This document shows, piece by piece, positions 43,657-52,792 of a stretch of DNA of 64,000 nt (the stretch's first letter is position 1; each line of letters starts with the position of its first letter). The translations under genes and the position numbers were made by a program. The notes below the pieces were generated by a model. That model saw nothing but the letters and a program-made list of their open reading frames with translations. It did no database searches and had not been told where the DNA came from. This DNA comes from Escherichia phage vB_EcoM_IME537: the sequence record NC_054921.1; one strand, written 5' to 3'.

Positions 43657-45244
<1,588 letters not shown>

Positions 45245-45252
45245 AATAAAAT

Positions 45253-45266
45253 GGGCCTTGCGGCCC
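45253..45266 (-). terminator. Hairpin GGGCC-GCAA-GGCCC between nrdB and denA
   Basis: 5-bp stem, GNRA loop. Confidence 0.4.
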
Positions 45267-45271
45267 ACTCC

Positions 45272-46441
45272 TTAAAAATATTTTTTAAAACTCATCATAA
45301 CTTTATCATCAACATCATTATCAATCTGTGCTACAAGGTAAGATGACAGTTCTACTTCTTGCGGCGCGGATTGAACATTATCAGAATTAAGGTATTCACG
45401 AATCCAAGGATACGGATGTTTAACCGGAGCATCGGTAATTGGGCATGGAAGACCGCACTGTTTCATACGAGATACAGTTAAGTAATCAATAAAGCTCCAC
45501 ATGCTATTTGTATTTAATCCAGGAACATCGCCATCTTTAAATAAATGAACTGCCCAGTCTTTTTCTTGGCGGTTAACTTCCATGAAAATATCAACTGCTT
45601 CTTGTTCACACTCTTGAGCAATTTTAACCCATTCATCACCATCAGTGCCAAGTTGAAGTTGACGAATAATATATTGGGTGCCTTTAAGATGAAGCTGCTC
45701 ATCACGCGCAATGAACTTCATAATCTTGGCATTACCTTCCATGATTTCCATGTTCTTATGGAAGTTAAAGGTACATGCGAAAGATACGTAAAAACGAATA
45801 GCTTCCAATGCATTGATTACATGCAAGCAGAGGTAAAGAGATTTCATTAATGCTCGTTTAGTACATTCAACAACTTTGCCTAACTCTTCTTTACGAAATC
45901 CTTCTGATAAAATTCCTTCATAATCTTCAACCGCGTTTTGGTATTCACGAGTCTTAACTAGAACATCATCGTAATAGCGACCAATGGACTCGGCACGTTT
46001 CATAATAGCTTTATCTAATACAATCTCATCAAATACCTTTGATGGGTCAGTATAAAGATTTCGCATGATATGAGTATATGAACGACTGTGAATAGTTTCA
46101 CTAAAAGTCCATGTAGCAACCCATGTATCAAGACTTGGATCTGAAATTAATGACATAAGTACTGCAGACGGTGCACGACCCTGAATGCTATCTAGAAGTG
46201 ATTGATACTTCAGGTTATTAGTAAAAATATCTTGCTGATACTGAGGAAGCTTGTTAAATTGTGCAGCATCCATCATTAAGTTTACTTCTTCAGGACGCCA
46301 GAAAAATGATAAAGATTTCTCTGTAAGTTCTTCAAATACTCGATGCCGTTGAATATCATAACGCGCAATACCAAGACCTGAACCAAAAAACATAGGTTCT
46401 TTTAAAACATCAACTGGATTTGTATTAAAAACTGTAGACAT
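45272..46441 (-). CDS. nrdB: Ribonucleotide reductase small subunit NrdB, intronless
   Basis: 389 aa from ATG 46441 (MSTVFNTNP...); single continuous ORF. Confidence 0.93.
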   Translation of the reverse strand: MSTVFNTNPVDVLKEPMFFGSGLGIARYDIQRHRVFEELTEKSLSFFWRPEEVNLMMDAAQFNKLPQYQQDIFTNNLKYQSLLDSIQGRAPSAVLMSLISDPSLDTWVATWTFSETIHSRSYTHIMRNLYTDPSKVFDEIVLDKAIMKRAESIGRYYDDVLVKTREYQNAVEDYEGILSEGFRKEELGKVVECTKRALMKSLYLCLHVINALEAIRFYVSFACTFNFHKNMEIMEGNAKIMKFIARDEQLHLKGTQYIIRQLQLGTDGDEWVKIAQECEQEAVDIFMEVNRQEKDWAVHLFKDGDVPGLNTNSMWSFIDYLTVSRMKQCGLPCPITDAPVKHPYPWIREYLNSDNVQSAPQEVELSSYLVAQIDNDVDDKVMMSFKKYF

Positions 46442-47172
46442 TAATTTTTCCTCTTTAAAATTCTGCCGTGTTTCCAACCTGGCGGTATAATATCATCTTT
46501 ACCTATAAGCGTGCATTCACTTCCATTATTAATCCATTTCTTACCGCGGATTCCTTTATAATCTCTTGGTTTTATTTTGTCAAACTTTGCATCAAGTTGA
46601 TATGACCATCTAAATCCATAAGCATATTGAAATTTACCCTCGGCACAATATTTGATATTTGACCCGTTTCCATTAACTGACCGGGACGCTGCCGCAATAG
46701 AGTGAAAGGTTTCTATGAAATCCCCATCTAATGAGAATTTATGTATTTCTACAGATGGGCACGCATATCTATTCACGTTAGATACATGCTGTTTAGTTTC
46801 GTTTTTATGATGCTTGCCTAGCATCCCTTTAGGATGAGGATTATTTTTCCAATATTTCTTAAAGAACTCAGAATTAGCTTTAGCAAATAATTTTCTGTGT
46901 AAGCTGTACAATCTGTTATTAATTCTATTGCCAGCTTTATCTGTTGCCATTAACGTTAACGCAGAGGCAAGACCAAAATGGCCTTCATTTATCTTACATA
47001 GTAATAGATGAGCTATAAAATGTTCTCTGGCTGTTAATTCAACTAAATTTTCCTTATCATCAGAACCTCCCATACATTTAGGGATTATATGATGTGTCTC
47101 TTTATATTCTAGTAAAGATTCCCGAGCCTGAGCTCGGGAAATTAGGTCGTTATAGATTTTTTGATAATTCAT
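46441..47172 (-). mobile_element. mobE: Free-standing HNH homing endonuclease (mobE position between nrdA and nrdB)
   Basis: 243 aa; HNH motif ETHHIIPKCMGGSDDKENLVELTAREHFIAH; TAATG overlaps at both ends. Confidence 0.8.
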
Positions 47173-48161
47173 TACAATTTACACGCTGCGCAATCATCGG
47201 CTTTTGGAGTTTCTATTTCATAATCATCAGTACCGGAACCATCACGAGTATTATGATAATAGAAGTTTTTAATGCCATAATACCATCCGTATAGCATGTC
47301 ATCAATCATTACAGACATTGGAACTTTTCCTTTTGGAAAAATCTGCGGGTCATAATATGTATTTGCTGAAGCTGATTGACATACCCATTTCAGCATAATA
47401 GCTACTTGCGTAAGATAAGGTTTATTACCTTTTTTAGCTAATTTCCACGTATAATCATACAGGTCTATGTTATGCTCAATATTGGGCACGACTTGATTAA
47501 AGGAGCCCTCTTTTGATTCTTTAACAGAGACTGGTCCACGTGGAGGCTCGATACCGTTTGTACTGTTAGAAACTTGGGAAGATGACTCACATGGCATAAG
47601 TGCTGATAATGTGCTATTACGGATGCCAAAGAGCTTAAGGTCTTCCCGCAGCGACGACCAGTCACAAACGTATTTTGGAGCTGCGATTTGGTCAATCTTT
47701 TTATTGTACCAGTCGATAGGTAATTCGCCTCGAGACCAACGGGTGTCTGAATAATATTCGCAAGGTCCTTTTTCTTTGGCGAGCTTAATGGATGCTTTAA
47801 TGAGTCCATACTGTAATCTCTCAAATAGTTCATGTGTTAAATCGTTAGCATCTTCATAAGAAGCAAAATTACTTGCCAGCCAAGCTGCATAGTTAGTAAC
47901 ACCTACGCCAAGGTTTCGACGCTTTTTAGCTTTTTCTGCTTCAGGAACTGGATATCCTTGGTAATCCAAAAGATTATCAAGAGCACGAACTTGGACTTCT
48001 GCCAATTCATTAATTTTATCTTGGTCTTGCCAATCGAAGTTATCTAACACAAATGCAGATAACGTGCAGAGGCCCACTTCACCTTTGTTTTCAATAACTT
48101 GTATTGTTGTATACTCATCATCTTCGTAAAATTCATCTACAAATTCATAATCAATATTCAT
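47172..48161 (-). CDS. nrdA: NrdA C-terminal piece (carries GLCTLSAF and the C-terminal YY...CAAC tail)
   Basis: 329 aa; begins with a 23-aa acidic non-conserved head, then the conserved class I large-subunit sequence. Confidence 0.88.
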   Translation of the reverse strand: MNIDYEFVDEFYEDDEYTTIQVIENKGEVGLCTLSAFVLDNFDWQDQDKINELAEVQVRALDNLLDYQGYPVPEAEKAKKRRNLGVGVTNYAAWLASNFASYEDANDLTHELFERLQYGLIKASIKLAKEKGPCEYYSDTRWSRGELPIDWYNKKIDQIAAPKYVCDWSSLREDLKLFGIRNSTLSALMPCESSSQVSNSTNGIEPPRGPVSVKESKEGSFNQVVPNIEHNIDLYDYTWKLAKKGNKPYLTQVAIMLKWVCQSASANTYYDPQIFPKGKVPMSVMIDDMLYGWYYGIKNFYYHNTRDGSGTDDYEIETPKADDCAACKL

Positions 48162-48861
48162 TTAATTCTTCTACCTTTTTTCGAGATATTCCTAGAGCTT
48201 TAGATGCTCGATGTATTGATTGATATTCTATACCGTTTATTTTTACAGCAATTAAGTTATGGGGTTTTAATCCCTTTGGATGAGGTTTACTGACGTATTC
48301 TTGATTATCGTTTTCAGAGATATTATCAAGCTTTCGACACTTAAAGCCTTTATGTTGAGACCTTTTGCCTTTGCATACGGCCGACATTGCCGAAGCATTG
48401 AGTGAATGTAGTTCGCAAAATTCTCTTAGGCCTTTATGGATTTCTTCATGACCGTCCGGGAAAGTAAATACCCAAGTTGTTTGAAGTTTTTCTCTATGCT
48501 CGTCAGTTACCGGAATACCTTTGTTCCAAGCTGGTTTGCCTTTATTATTTTCAGATACAGAAATAGCCAATTTTCTTCTAAGCCACCCATGGCGTTTATT
48601 GGTGTTCTTTCGTTCAATATTATCTTCAGAATAAACACACATCATATTAGCGGCAAATACCAATTTATGATTATCTGGATATATCTTTACTAATAATTGA
48701 TGAGCTATGTAATGCTCTTCGGGTGTCAAATCTACCAGGTTTTCCTTTGTATCAGAACCACCAATACACAGAGGTATAATATGGTGTGATTCGGTATAGC
48801 AATCTAATTTTCTGTTCTTAGCTTTAGAAATAAGGTTATTGTAAATTTTAGAATAATCCAT
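48151..48861 (-). mobile_element. Second HNH homing endonuclease (mobE paralogue) inserted inside nrdA
   Basis: 236 aa; HNH motif ESHHIIPLCIGGSDTKENLVDLTPEEHYIAH; own RBS AAGAGGAAAA; C-terminal HTH-like RASKALGISRKKVEEL. Confidence 0.85.
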
Positions 48862-48906
48862 AACTTTTCCTCTTGTTATGGATTATTTATTAACGGTCTG
48901 TGTACT

Positions 48907-50340
48907 TTATTTGCTTTGAATTATACCGCCAGGATTAGCTTCATAAAACTTAGCTACATCCGACTTCTTAATTTTGATTAAACGGGTTTGTTGGCTATTG
49001 ACATCATTAGTTGGAATAGCAATTTCACAACACAAGTTGCTCTGACGAATAGGTGCCTTTTCGCGAATAAACGGAGTATAGTTATTCGTATTATCAATGA
49101 ACTGCACATAAATCCTTGCTGTTCCTGATCGTTCAGTCATGAGCAATTCAAACAGTTCACGGGCTTTAATACGCTTTTTACGAATATTAGGGTCTTTTTC
49201 TGCGGCTTCATATAATTCACGGAAACGGTCTTGGTCTTTAAAATAAGAATAATAAAGCTCGCCACCCATTTCGTGTGGACTGAACAAAGTAATGTAGTCG
49301 TTCTTTCCGAATCGTTCCATCATTAGGTCATTCAGCTGGACACCATAATCCATATGGCGGATACGGTTTTCTTCTACACCTTTGTTATTTTTCAAAACGA
49401 GAAGATTTTCAACTTCCAAATGCCAAATAGGATAATAAGCAGTAGCAGCACCGCCACGAATTCCGCCCTGTGAACATGATTTAACAGCAGTCTGAAAATG
49501 TTTCCAAAAAGGAATAACACCAGTATGGCGTACTTCACCTGTGCCAATCTTAGAACCTTCGGCACGAATCATACCAACGTTAATGCCGATTCCAGCTCGC
49601 TTGGAGATATATTCAACAATTGAAGCAGAAGCTTTGTTGATAGACTTCAGCGAATCACCTGCCTCAATAACAACGCATGAACTAAACTGTCGAGTTGGAG
49701 TACGACATCCAGCCATAATAGGAGTTGGCAATGAAATCTGTCGAGTGGATACTGCTTCATAAAAACGGATAACGTGTTTTAATCTATCAACAGGTTCATC
49801 TTGATGCAATGCCATTCCAATAGTCATAAACGCAAACTGTGGAGTTTCATAAATTTGACCAGTGGTTTTATCTTTAACGAGATATTTTTCTTTTAATTGC
49901 ATCGCCCCGGAATAAGTAAATTCCATATCCCGCTCATGCTTAATTTTTGATTCTAAAAATGTAATTTCTTCTGCTGAATATTTTGACAGCAGTTCAGGGT
50001 CATATTTACCTTCATTTACACAGTAAGAAATATGGTCAATAAATGAACATGGTTCATATTGCCCGTAAACATGCTTACGAAGAGCAAACATTAAACACCG
50101 TGCAGCTACATATTGATAATCAGGCTCTTCAACTGAAATAGAATTCGCAGCAGCCTTAATGACAATAGTCTGAATGTCATCAGTTGTCATTCCATCACGG
50201 AGATATGATTTAATATTTTCATATAATTCATAAGGATCTACAGATGTTCCTTCAGCTGCCCAAGATAAAACTTTAATAATTTTTTGCGGGTCAAAGCTTT
50301 GAGAAACACCACTACTTTTGATAACATTAATTAATTGCAT
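48907..50340 (-). CDS. nrdA: NrdA N-terminal piece (carries the active-site SNLCCEIAIP)
   Basis: 477 aa; MQLINVIKSSGVSQSF...; conserved sequence ends at ...IPTNDVN followed by a 29-aa basic tail and stop. Confidence 0.88.
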   Translation of the reverse strand: MQLINVIKSSGVSQSFDPQKIIKVLSWAAEGTSVDPYELYENIKSYLRDGMTTDDIQTIVIKAAANSISVEEPDYQYVAARCLMFALRKHVYGQYEPCSFIDHISYCVNEGKYDPELLSKYSAEEITFLESKIKHERDMEFTYSGAMQLKEKYLVKDKTTGQIYETPQFAFMTIGMALHQDEPVDRLKHVIRFYEAVSTRQISLPTPIMAGCRTPTRQFSSCVVIEAGDSLKSINKASASIVEYISKRAGIGINVGMIRAEGSKIGTGEVRHTGVIPFWKHFQTAVKSCSQGGIRGGAATAYYPIWHLEVENLLVLKNNKGVEENRIRHMDYGVQLNDLMMERFGKNDYITLFSPHEMGGELYYSYFKDQDRFRELYEAAEKDPNIRKKRIKARELFELLMTERSGTARIYVQFIDNTNNYTPFIREKAPIRQSNLCCEIAIPTNDVNSQQTRLIKIKKSDVAKFYEANPGGIIQSK

Positions 50341-50612
50341 AAGTCCTCAACTTGAAAATCGTCTTTAAACAATCGGTTAACTATATGAGCTATTATATCA
50401 CCATGACACGGCTTTGGTTTACATGTGCATCCTAGCCTCATTCCACGTAAAGGCTCTAAATGTGCTTTAGTTATTTCTCCGGATTTAATTCGACGTATAA
50501 AATCTTTTTTGAATAATTCAATGGCAGCCTCCCGGCTGCCAGCATCTTTACCGACGTAATTTCCCCAAAATGTACCACGGTGAATATTAACATCAAAGTC
50601 GGATTTATATTT
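50331..50612 (-). pseudogene. Conserved-looking ORF region (...GTFWGNY...LGCTCKPKPCHGD...) with no in-frame start; apparently disrupted
   Basis: 93 sense codons directly after the in-frame TAA of the upstream 87-aa ORF; the only nearby ATG (50659) is in another frame across an A5 tract. Confidence 0.5.
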
Positions 50613-50876
50613 TTATTCACTACTTGGCATAGACGGCCCGCGCGGTGATAATTCGTCATATTGTTTTTCCGTTAAAACAGTAATATCATAGTAACAATCA
50701 GAAGAAGTTTTAACCGTAGAAATTTTATTATCAAAATACTCACGAGTCATTTTATGAGTATAATATTTTTTGCCATAAATGATAATAGGCTGATTTGGTC
50801 CTGGAACTTCTAACTCGCTTGGGTTAGGAAGTGTAAAAAGAACTACACCAGAAGTATCTTTAAATCGTAAAATCAT
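50613..50876 (-). CDS. Hypothetical protein (nrdA.x position), in frame with the downstream disrupted region
   Basis: 87 aa ORF. Confidence 0.5.
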
Positions 50877-50899
50877 ATATCCTCACAATTAATAATTAA

Positions 50900-51759
50900 T
50901 TACACCGCCATTTTTCCTTTAATAGGAGGGTGTGATTCGTAACCTTTAAGAACGAAATCTTTAGGCCTGAGTTTAAGAACATATTCCAATTGTTCTTTAG
51001 TAGAAAGATAGCGGAATTTATAAGGCAATCCGCCTATTACCAGTTCACAAAGCTCTTTAGGTTCACGACGTAAAATTTCTTTACACTGTTCTATGTGATT
51101 CATATAGATATGAGTATTACCACCAGAAAATATCAAATCTCCTGGAATAAGATTACACATCTTAGCTACAATATGAACTAATGCAGCATATGATGCAATG
51201 TTGAATGGCAAGCCCAAGAACACGTCAACACTTCTTTGATACCACTGCAAATCCAAATAGCCATTACGCACATTAAACTGATAAAACATATGACAAGGTG
51301 GTAATGCCATATGTTTAAGTTCAGCTGGATTCCATGCTGAAACAATTTGACGCCTATCATTCGGCAGTTTTTTAATACGATCAATAACTTCTACAATTTG
51401 GTCTACACCGCCAAAATCACGCCACTGTTTTCCATAAATTGGACCAAGTTCACCACTATGATATCCTAAATCTTTTGCTTGATTTTCGTAATTTTCATCC
51501 CAGACTGTTTTGCCTTGAATTAATGAATCATGCTGAATTAATCGTAAATCATTTACGTTAGTACTTCCTGACAAAAACCATATTAGCTCAGCAATACAAG
51601 CTTTCCAGGCGAGCTTCTTAGTCGTTACTGCAGGAAAACCTTTAGTTAAATCCCAGCGTAATTTAGTACCGAACAAAGCAATTGTTCCTGTGCCTGTTCG
51701 GTCATCGGTTTCATAACCGTTTTCCAGGATATCTTTAATTAAAAATTGGTATTGTTTCA

Positions 51760-51760
<1 letters not shown>
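50900..51760 (-). CDS. td: Thymidylate synthase, intronless
   Basis: 286 aa from ATG 51760 (MKQYQFLIKD...); active-site PPCH; continuous ORF. Confidence 0.95.

Positions 51761-52792
<1,032 letters not shown>

Follow-up and report, generated by a model that had tools for sequence, protein, structure and literature searches.

Two HNH homing endonuclease genes, probably acquired independently, in the nrdA-nrdB operon of a T4-like coliphage

In Aeromonas phage Aeh1, a member of the Cinqassovirus, the large-subunit gene of ribonucleotide reductase (RNR) is split by a homing endonuclease gene, in the order nrdA-a/mobE/nrdA-b (Friedrich et al. 2007 PNAS; Crona et al. 2011 NAR, PMC3045599; Gibb & Edgell 2007, 2009). 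The two NrdA fragments co-purify and the enzyme is active; the tails that they carry are essential for RNR activity and for dimerization of the large subunit (PMC3045599). In T-even phages, namely T4, RB2, RB3, RB15 and LZ7, a mobE gene resides between nrdA and nrdB (Wilson & Edgell 2009, PMC2790892; Edgell, Gibb & Belfort 2010, PMC2988022). The mobE of T4 is mobile and has no promoter (PMC2790892); its start overlaps the nrdA stop in a UAAUG motif (PMC2988022). Here we analyze the nrd operon of Escherichia phage vB_EcoM_IME537 (NC_054921.1), a T4-like coliphage (Tequatrovirus), within a stretch of 64,000 nucleotides (nt) referred to below as the window. This operon contains two nuclease genes: HNH-1, which splits nrdA (element 1), and HNH-2, which lies between nrdA and nrdB (element 2). 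Each element is of a kind already described. We conclude, with a probability of about 0.85, that the operon was invaded twice, independently, by two Mob / I-HmuI-like HNH homing endonuclease genes.

Open reading frames (ORFs), Pfam domains and nucleotide comparisons were obtained for the nrd region of the window. In the direction of transcription, the genes are td, two small ORFs, nrdA-N, a spacer, HNH-1, nrdA-C, HNH-2 and nrdB, all on the minus strand (Table 1). A first-pass annotation of this sequence had placed two HNH ORFs on either side of nrdA-C and described them as sharing an N-terminal module while differing in their C-terminal regions. Both statements are confirmed. BLASTP aligns the two proteins with 49/105 identities (47%, E=5e-24), limited to residues 1-105, and finds no significant similarity between them past residue 105. 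The HNH catalytic motif (HH...N...H) is intact in both nucleases (SHHIIPLCIGGSDTKENLVDLTPEEHYIAH and THHIIPKCMGGSDDKENLVELTAREHFIAH). The Pfam HNH family matches both slightly below its gathering score (E=9e-4 and 3.5e-3), and both belong to PHROG 655, 'homing endonuclease' (E=3e-60 and 5e-57). In the C-terminal half, Pfam identifies NUMOD1 in HNH-2, and an I-HmuI NUMOD-like region together with a weak match to an I-TevI-type DNA-binding (helix-turn-helix) domain in HNH-1. No third member of this nuclease family was found within the window. A sequence search of the PDB yielded only marginal matches for HNH-1 (McrA HNH, E=0.0035; I-HmuI, E=0.099) and nothing useful for HNH-2; the AlphaFold model of HNH-1 (predicted local distance difference test score 87.7) has a single significant fold match in the PDB, namely I-HmuI 1U3E (E=5.7e-5). 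Judged by their sequences, HNH-1 and HNH-2 are Mob / I-HmuI-like HNH homing endonucleases of T4-like phages.

The first-pass annotation had attributed this resemblance to duplication and retargeting within the nrd operon, an interpretation at odds with the phylogeny, the distances, the separate occurrence of the two elements and their separate identity tracts. In a neighbor-joining tree of 20 family members, built from their first 100 residues (300 bootstraps), HNH-2 groups with the T4-type MobE (92%) and then with MobD (80%). HNH-1 clusters with no sequence other than its own variant, and the two nucleases share a small clade in 0/300 bootstraps. Of 19 comparators, none is farther from HNH-1 than HNH-2; the N-terminal module of HNH-1 is 56-67% identical to that of nucleases at other loci, such as those of UFV05 (between genes 45.2 and 46) and of Klebsiella phages, versus 46-47% identical to that of HNH-2. 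Among approximately 540 Tequatrovirus records matching nrdB, either element occurs alone in many phages, HNH-1 being found in 33 and HNH-2 in 55 (all three counts include duplicate records). The 33 HNH-1 genes, all from Tequatrovirus, are 90-100% identical in nucleotide sequence, and are always located between two nrdA ORFs. In the window, HNH-1 lies in a tract of 936 nt (48064-48999) that is identical to PEC04, and HNH-2 in one of 965 nt (46347-47311) that is identical to G50; the flanks of both tracts differ by 3-5% from PEC04 and G50, and the rest of the region matches neither. Both elements have thus spread horizontally in recent times. No near-identical backbone lacking one of the elements was found, the best overall match, SH-2, being still ~3% diverged. 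Based on the tree, the distances, the separate occurrence and the age of the nrdA-splitting lineage described below, we conclude that any common origin of HNH-1 and HNH-2 is ancient and lies outside this operon. 'Retargeting' is nevertheless a fair term for the family, though not for the event considered here, since HNH heads do recombine with different DNA-binding bodies, as in the T4-type and RB3-type mobE.

Comparison with the unsplit nrdA genes of T4, T2, G50 and PST maps the boundaries of element 1. It consists of 913 nt (48081-48993) that replace 9 nt, i.e., the Pro-Asp-Ala codons, in the loop ...CCEIAIPTNDVNS|PDA|EIGLCTLSAF..., between the codons of the cysteines equivalent to C439 and C462. 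The element comprises, in this order, 28 tail codons and a stop, a 45-nt spacer with a predicted hairpin, HNH-1, and an overlapping new start followed by 27 head codons. The nrdA-N stop is at 48909-48907 and HNH-1 begins 45 nt further downstream; the nrdA-C ATG (48161-48159) sits 11 nt inside the 3' end of HNH-1, before its TGA stop (48153-48151). Immediately beyond the junction, the nrdA sequence is recoded, with a cluster of ~16 differences from G50 in 49 nt; the first 17 nt contain six changes and one I-to-V substitution. This segment is probably a remnant of the HNH-1 target site, or an immunized or co-converted half of it; a nick or break by HNH-1 is predicted in T2 nrdA near nt 1340-1380 (codons NDVNSPDAEIGLC).

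HNH-1 aligns with Aeh1 MobE over its full length (109/229 identities, 48%, E=3e-61), whereas HNH-2 matches that protein over ~150 N-terminal amino acids only, at 35%. Among 50,697 phage records, Aeh1 MobE is the best full-length match to HNH-1 after its own clade of 33 records. The anatomy of the Aeh1 locus, namely nrdA-A of 473 amino acids, a 46-nt spacer, mobE of 237 amino acids and nrdA-B of 323 amino acids, is likewise that seen here, with the same split point (...PTNDVNS | EVGLCTL...), a basic tail and an acidic head, a spacer of nearly the same length, and a nuclease gene whose 3' end overlaps the start of the downstream nrdA piece (by 14 nt there, versus 11 nt here). In both gene sequence and arrangement, HNH-1 is the Tequatrovirus counterpart of the Aeh1 'mobE'. 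The two loci also differ. That of Aeh1 belongs to an Aeromonas Cinqassovirus, and this one to an Escherichia coli Tequatrovirus whose NrdA is only 49-58% identical. The Aeh1 nrdA-b/nrdB spacer, 42 nt in length, is devoid of any gene, while here it is occupied by a second nuclease gene. Finally, the present element is polymorphic in near-identical phages, and recent mobility is therefore visible in this case. A protein search also returned further full-length relatives of HNH-1 with graded identities of 53-67%; three of these, of metagenomic origin, were looked up, and each lies between an nrdA-N of 474-476 amino acids and an overlapping nrdA-C of 324-327 amino acids. Scans of IMG/VR, either with an alignment of HNH-1 and Aeh1 MobE or with HNH-1 alone, gave Aeh1 and relatives of the N-terminal module only, and no HY01-type cassette.

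Besides the nrdA-splitting genes, the only full-length relatives of HNH-1 in phage isolates are nucleases at uvsW/uvsW.1, as in phage G8 (L024 1501-2193) and ~25 similar records, with ~35% identity to HNH-1. Since uvsW is another gene that forms a single ORF in some phages but two in T4, members of this nuclease subfamily may repeatedly settle at positions where genes are split.

Element 1 also encodes the basic C-terminal tail of NrdA-N and the acidic N-terminal head of NrdA-C, both of which are absent from unsplit nrdA. The calculation that gives the isoelectric points (pI) listed in Table 1 yields 9.9 and 4.1 for the Aeh1 tails. Homologous, charge-complementary tails are present in five lineages (the window, Aeh1, and those denoted L031, L032 and L033), with N-tails of pI ~10 and C-heads of pI 4.1. 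The N-tail core is L(I/F/V)K(I/V)(K/R)K(S/K)(D/E)(V/I)x(K/D/Q)F, and the C-head core is E(F/V)YED(D/E)EYTT. NrdA itself is only 49-77% identical between the other four of these lineages and the window. Within Tequatrovirus the tails are part of the mobile unit, because the PEC04-identical tract spans the tails as well as the nuclease gene, while the flanking nrdA is ~4-5% different. By analogy with Aeh1, the charged tails probably let the NrdA pieces reassemble. In a literature search we did not find a published analysis of tails travelling with the nuclease gene, although the idea is not wholly new.

Of the two nrdA pieces, nrdA-N includes the SNLCCEI active-site finger (the equivalent of E. 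coli C439), and nrdA-C contains the cysteine equivalent to C462 and the C-terminal CxxC. Codons 1-449 of nrdA-N are collinear with the unsplit genes of G50, T4, T2 and PST, with 57-68 synonymous versus 2-4 non-synonymous codon differences; codons 28-329 of nrdA-C are collinear with codons 453-754 of unsplit nrdA, with 27-37 synonymous versus 2-6 non-synonymous differences. Purifying selection on both pieces is therefore strong. A scan of 45000-52000 against Rfam at E<=1 detected no group I intron or regulatory RNA, the only match being one to the L20 leader at chance level. In view of the synonymous excess, the absence of an intron, the separate reading frames and the biochemistry of Aeh1, NrdA-N and NrdA-C most likely form a functional two-piece large subunit.

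HNH-1 appears to bring its own expression signals. A predicted hairpin with 13-bp arms at 48887-48875 and 48864-48852, in which AAUAAUCCAUAAC pairs with GUUAUGGAUUAUU, places the GAGG Shine-Dalgarno sequence (48872-48869) in the loop and the AUG (48861-48859) in the 3' arm. The predicted folding energy of the 101 nt from 48945 to 48845 is -19.2 kcal/mol (z=-3.5), and 0/200 shuffled sequences were as stable. In Aeh1 a comparably strong hairpin covers the mobE ribosome-binding site, as folded here and as also reported (PMC2988022), although in that case the Shine-Dalgarno sequence is paired, whereas here it is the AUG. According to work cited in PMC2988022, the Aeh1 hairpin was shown experimentally to repress translation. 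A late promoter combined with a hairpin has been described for both I-TevI and Aeh1 mobE (PMC2988022), and in Aeh1, as here, a late-promoter-like motif is found at the 5' edge of the hairpin. In the window this motif is AATAAATA (48891-48884) and shares sequence with the 5' arm, which would be missing from a late transcript initiated just past the motif. By analogy, we hypothesize that such a late transcript might relieve the HNH-1 hairpin. A scan for sigma-70 promoters identified 22 sites, versus 22.1 in shuffled sequence.

HNH-2 is the other known kind of element. Over the 831 nt around HNH-2, G50 and several other phages are 100% identical to the window, and RB3 (AY262130.2), in which the coding sequence is annotated 'MobE' by the Sjöberg laboratory, is 96.2% identical; the downstream nuclease gene had indeed been assigned to the mobE family in the first-pass annotation. 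Its TAATG overlaps with the nrdA-C stop and the nrdB start, noted at that stage, are likewise evident: the nrdA-C TAA (47174-47172) overlaps the HNH-2 ATG (47172-47170), and the HNH-2 TAA (46443-46441) overlaps the nrdB ATG. In phages that lack mobE, a 51-nt spacer with its own signals stands in its place. As with the T-even mobE, the gene is found between nrdA and nrdB, begins within UAAUG, has neither an evident promoter nor a Shine-Dalgarno sequence of its own, and contains a terminator-like hairpin near its 5' end. A weak terminator in T4 mobE, with a 9-nt stem and a 4-nt loop ~27 nt past the AUG, has been mapped experimentally (PMC2790892). The expression of HNH-2 is likely held back both by its coupling to the nrdA-C stop and by the internal terminator. 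The proposal that both nuclease genes are translationally coupled and exploit host-gene signals thus applies to HNH-2, with TAATG at both of its ends, but not to the start of HNH-1, with its 45-nt spacer, its own ribosome-binding site and a predicted hairpin over the AUG; HNH-1 is entangled with its neighbor only at the 3' end.

Compared with the mobE of the T4 reference, however, HNH-2 is similar in nucleotide sequence only over the first ~170 nt (57 codons; window 47003-47172), and the rest is unrelated; at the protein level, the 62% identity to T4 MobE over the first 105 amino acids is all within the first ~57 residues. The T4-type MobE has NUMOD3 repeats and a Cys/His cluster, versus the NUMOD1 region of HNH-2. 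A further difference from the T-even arrangement is that the mobE stop here overlaps the nrdB start directly. The T4 reference (NC_000866; L007 4717-5417) contains a mobE of 141 amino acids and an nrdB.1 of 83 amino acids, while an intact version of 213 amino acids, with HNH and NUMOD3, is found in the assemblies L037 (4690-5331) and L032 (5169-5810). The last 83 amino acids of this gene product are 92.8% identical to nrdB.1, and T4 mobE plus nrdB.1 looks like a frameshifted copy of the 213-residue gene. Because the similarity to T4 stops at ~57 residues, HNH-2 can be regarded as an allelic variant with a different DNA-binding half; and since such alleles combine a common HNH head with different DNA-binding bodies, 'mobE' is in effect a name defined by position. 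HNH-2 was also considered as a candidate hef, the gene that replaces mobE in phage U5, and was rejected; a preprint describes hef as VSR-like, while HNH-2 has the HNH motif. In 236Ecol005PP (L028 836-1627), a gene for a D12-class N6-adenine DNA methyltransferase (Pfam E=1e-23) resides at the nrdA-nrdB spacer, beside an nrdA split by HNH-1. This spacer thus appears to be a hotspot for non-nuclease cargo too.

Table 1. Features of the nrd region of vB_EcoM_IME537, in window coordinates.
Feature	Position	Strand	Description
td	51772..50900	-	Intron-less
nrdA-N (nrdA-a equivalent)	48907..50340	-	477 amino acids; Pfam: ATP-cone, all-alpha domain, first half of RNR barrel
Basic C-terminal tail of NrdA-N	48910..48993	-	28 amino acids; QQTRLIKIKKSDVAKFYEANPGGIIQSK; pI 10.0, net +4; cassette-encoded
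Putative HNH-1 translation-control region	48852..48891	-	Predicted hairpin, GAGG, AUG, late-promoter-like motif
HNH-1, nrdA-splitting HNH homing endonuclease gene	48151..48861	-	236 amino acids; by sequence, Tequatrovirus counterpart of Aeh1 'mobE'
Acidic N-terminal head of NrdA-C	48081..48161	-	27 amino acids; MNIDYEFVDEFYEDDEYTTIQVIENKG; pI 4.1, net -8; cassette-encoded
Recoded nrdA segment beside insertion	48033..48080	-	GAAGTGGGCCTCTGCAC versus GAAATTGGATTGTGTAC in unsplit genes; single amino acid change, I to V
nrdA-C (nrdA-b equivalent)	47172..48161	-	329 amino acids; Pfam: second half of RNR barrel
HNH-2, RB3-type mobE	46441..47172	-	243 amino acids; free-standing HNH homing endonuclease gene between nrdA and nrdB
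Terminator-like hairpin in 5' end of mobE (HNH-2)	47119..47140	-	TTCCCGAGC-TCAG-GCTCGGGAA then TCTTT; 9 pairs, 4-nt loop, ~30 nt into gene
nrdB GAGG Shine-Dalgarno sequence	46450..46453	-	Within last mobE codons; read from AAAGAGGAAAAATTAATG
nrdB	45272..46441	-	389 amino acids; intron-less; Pfam
True nrdB ATG	46441-46439	-	Overlaps mobE stop (TAATG)

No record in INPHARED covers more than 86% of the region 45200-50400, and hence no isolate in that collection has both elements. Among isolates, co-occurrence was 0 observed versus ~3 expected by chance, which is at most weakly suggestive. Exact-protein look-ups did, however, reveal the same double arrangement in at least two independent public read assemblies, L045 (SRR14610590) and L044 (SRR23253345), which are collinear with the window over 5.7 kb at 95-96% nucleotide identity; L037 and L032 have an analogous double arrangement with a T4-type MobE. 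Since L045 and L044 share the gene order, the double arrangement is real and recurrent, though rare in isolates. In L044 (Logan SRR23253345, 812-1522), HNH-1, there of the e11/2 type, is broken into ORFs of 129 and 106 amino acids, while the tails, the nrdA pieces and mobE are intact; this interruption reflects either decay of the nuclease or an assembly error.

Two other accounts of the pair of nucleases were weighed against independent invasion. It could be argued that one mobE was copied within the operon and that the copy gained a new DNA-binding region and an nrdA target, given the 47% identity of the catalytic modules, the common PHROG and the distance of 1 kb between the genes; for Aeh1, mobE has in fact been proposed to have reached nrdA from its intergenic position in a 'transposition-like' way (PMC3045599). 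Yet a local copy should not be the farthest relative among 19, never a sister in 300 bootstraps and less similar in its module than nucleases of other loci, nor would it be expected that the two elements are found separately, each within a tract of perfect identity to a different phage, or that the nrdA-splitting lineage is old and spans genera. We therefore regard a local duplication as highly improbable. Alternatively, assembly might have joined two co-infecting phages, an HY01-like and a G50-like one, into a chimera. This would account for the 100% identity of the two elements to two different isolates, and for the lack in INPHARED of an isolate with both. A simple splice of PEC04 and G50 would, however, match them outside the elements, whereas the flanks and the 1-kb nrdA-C match neither exactly; moreover, L045 and L044 come from other samples and have the same order over 5.7 kb, and L037 and L032 show the analogous arrangement. 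We give very little credence to a chimera, and retain two independent invasions as the preferred explanation.

As to the split gene, its interruption could in principle signify that the aerobic RNR large subunit has been lost, that the host enzyme is used instead, and that the pieces and tails are decaying. The nrd genes of T4 are non-essential in laboratory hosts, and the premature stop in the nuclease gene of L044 indicates that decay does happen in this region. Nonetheless, all 33 isolates, like four other lineages, retain both nrdA pieces intact, the codon changes relative to unsplit genes are overwhelmingly synonymous, the tails are kept across lineages in spite of the divergence of their NrdA, and the homologous Aeh1 enzyme is fully active (PMC3045599); pseudogenization is thus very unlikely. 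The chance that the intervening sequence is instead removed as a degenerate intein or group I intron, to give a continuous NrdA, seems to us almost negligible. RNR genes do often host inteins and introns, and Crona et al. considered a degenerate split intein as the origin of the tails (PMC3045599). But a stop codon closes NrdA-N, and the nuclease is read in another frame from a start of its own; the Rfam scan, which included group I introns, had no such match; the tails have neither the Cys/Ser start nor the His-Asn end of intein blocks; and NrdA-a and NrdA-b of Aeh1 were purified as separate proteins (PMC3045599). The reading that we favor is thus that of a two-piece enzyme encoded around an inserted nuclease gene.

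Several points nevertheless weigh against our overall reading. There is no covariation in support of the HNH-1 hairpin among the five variants compared (the window, PEC04, F2, e11/2 and 236Ecol005PP), because the spacer is invariant in them, and AATAAATA is only a 7/8 match to the T4 late promoter. T4 MobE nicks T2 nrdB at nt 122-126 (PMC2790892), which correspond to 46320-46316 in the window. At nt 96-129 of the window nrdB (46313-46346) there are 13 differences from T2, PEC04, G50 and RB3, and the sequence is identical to that of PST, which lacks mobE; the G50-identical tract ends at nrdB nt 95, i.e., at the edge of this patch. The allele at the nick site is therefore that of a phage without mobE, and self-immunity is unaccounted for. 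With only ~57 N-terminal residues shared with the T4 enzyme and a different DNA-binding region (NUMOD1 versus NUMOD3), the RB3-type MobE may have a target other than nrdB nt 122-126. Outside Tequatrovirus, nuclease identity follows NrdA identity (48/58, 53/64, 61/68 and 67/73%), as would be expected from long vertical co-descent no less than from repeated transfer. Lastly, our account of the RNR activity of this phage, the function of its tails, the nicking sites and the regulation draws on experiments with Aeh1 and T4.

With this in mind, the following mechanism can be envisaged. The NrdA fragments would be translated separately and would associate into a composite active site, as in Aeh1, with the oppositely charged tails required for an (a/b)2 large subunit; by the same analogy, the insertion would be phenotypically neutral, since the fragments would assemble via the tails. 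Expression of HNH-1 would be held low by the hairpin, perhaps being relieved late in infection. In a mixed infection, HNH-1 would nick or cut unsplit nrdA near the insertion point, and repair would copy the whole cassette, tails included. Element 2 takes the place of the 51-nt nrdA-nrdB spacer. Given that its mobE has no evident promoter or Shine-Dalgarno sequence of its own, ribosomes probably re-initiate on it at the nrdA-C stop (TAATG); it carries a weak internal terminator and provides nrdB with a ribosome-binding site and the second TAATG. We tentatively propose, at somewhat less than even odds, that the nrdA-splitting element is a portable unit, consisting of basic tail, nuclease gene and acidic head, that came with its own antidote to the splitting of the gene into a T4-type nrdA from a distant lineage, and that in double operons either nuclease may drag the other element, along with nrdA-C, into naive phages. 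A decayed copy could persist by such trans-homing, much as the defunct I-TevIII beside T4 mobE; the interrupted HNH-1 of L044, with an intact mobE beside it, is an arrangement of this kind.

Two other systems invite comparison. The nuclease mobA splits the T4 topoisomerase gene 39/60 (preprint 10.1101/2022.08.31.505936), and as in the present case it is a Mob-family nuclease gene between out-of-frame sequences that lengthen the upstream fragment at its C terminus and the downstream fragment at its N terminus; unlike that case, the host gene is nrdA, no translational-bypass cassette is found, and the tails have 27-28 amino acids rather than ~44. In homing endonuclease gene islands (Barth et al. 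2023, PMC10448857), such genes bracket essential genes; similarly, the present region has nuclease genes on both sides of a 1-kb portion of an essential gene, and in relatives it also hosts the intron nucleases I-TevIII and I-TevI. The island concept, however, was developed mainly for ICP1, with T5orf172 and IPA-HNH nucleases, whereas both nucleases here are of the Mob HNH type, and one of them creates the piece that is flanked.

Elsewhere in the region, the TTG at 46477, given as the nrdB start in the ORF listing, was rejected in favor of the ATG in Table 1. The small ORF nrdA.1 (DUF4326; ~50331-50659, minus strand) contains an AA insertion at 50611-50612 relative to PEC04, causing a frameshift after 16 codons; this could be a real polymorphism, as some relatives are annotated with a shorter ORF of 95 amino acids, or a homopolymer sequencing error. 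Two patches in td (50940-51060 and 51200-51235) are strongly diverged from SH-2, PEC04 and G50, down to ~65% identity. The second of these is presumably near the T4 td intron/I-TevI site, and both are possible footprints of intron homing or loss. In nrdB, a patch (45800-46000; nt 442-642) with only 70-77% identity to PEC04 and G50 is located just 5' of the spot where, in relatives, a group I intron with I-TevIII interrupts the gene; the patch represents an alternative allele that is common, being 96-97% identical to ime09, Shfl2, UFV13 and others.

The split reductase of Aeh1 has been treated largely as a one-off, but the same design exists in ordinary T4-like coliphages, which lend themselves to crosses and engineering. 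Because phages of the HY01 type can be crossed with T2, in which both insertion sites are empty, or with T4, this makes for a tractable system, and double occupancy of the operon provides a natural setting in which neighboring homing endonucleases may help each other or compete. For genome annotation, it follows that 'mobE' currently covers at least three different proteins, those of the T4, RB3 and nrdA-splitting types, and that genomes of this kind should not have their two nrdA ORFs labelled pseudogenes. The part most worth following, in our view, is the conserved, co-mobile tails of the five lineages, which support the idea of a selfish element that carries a peptide glue and so neutralizes its own damage.

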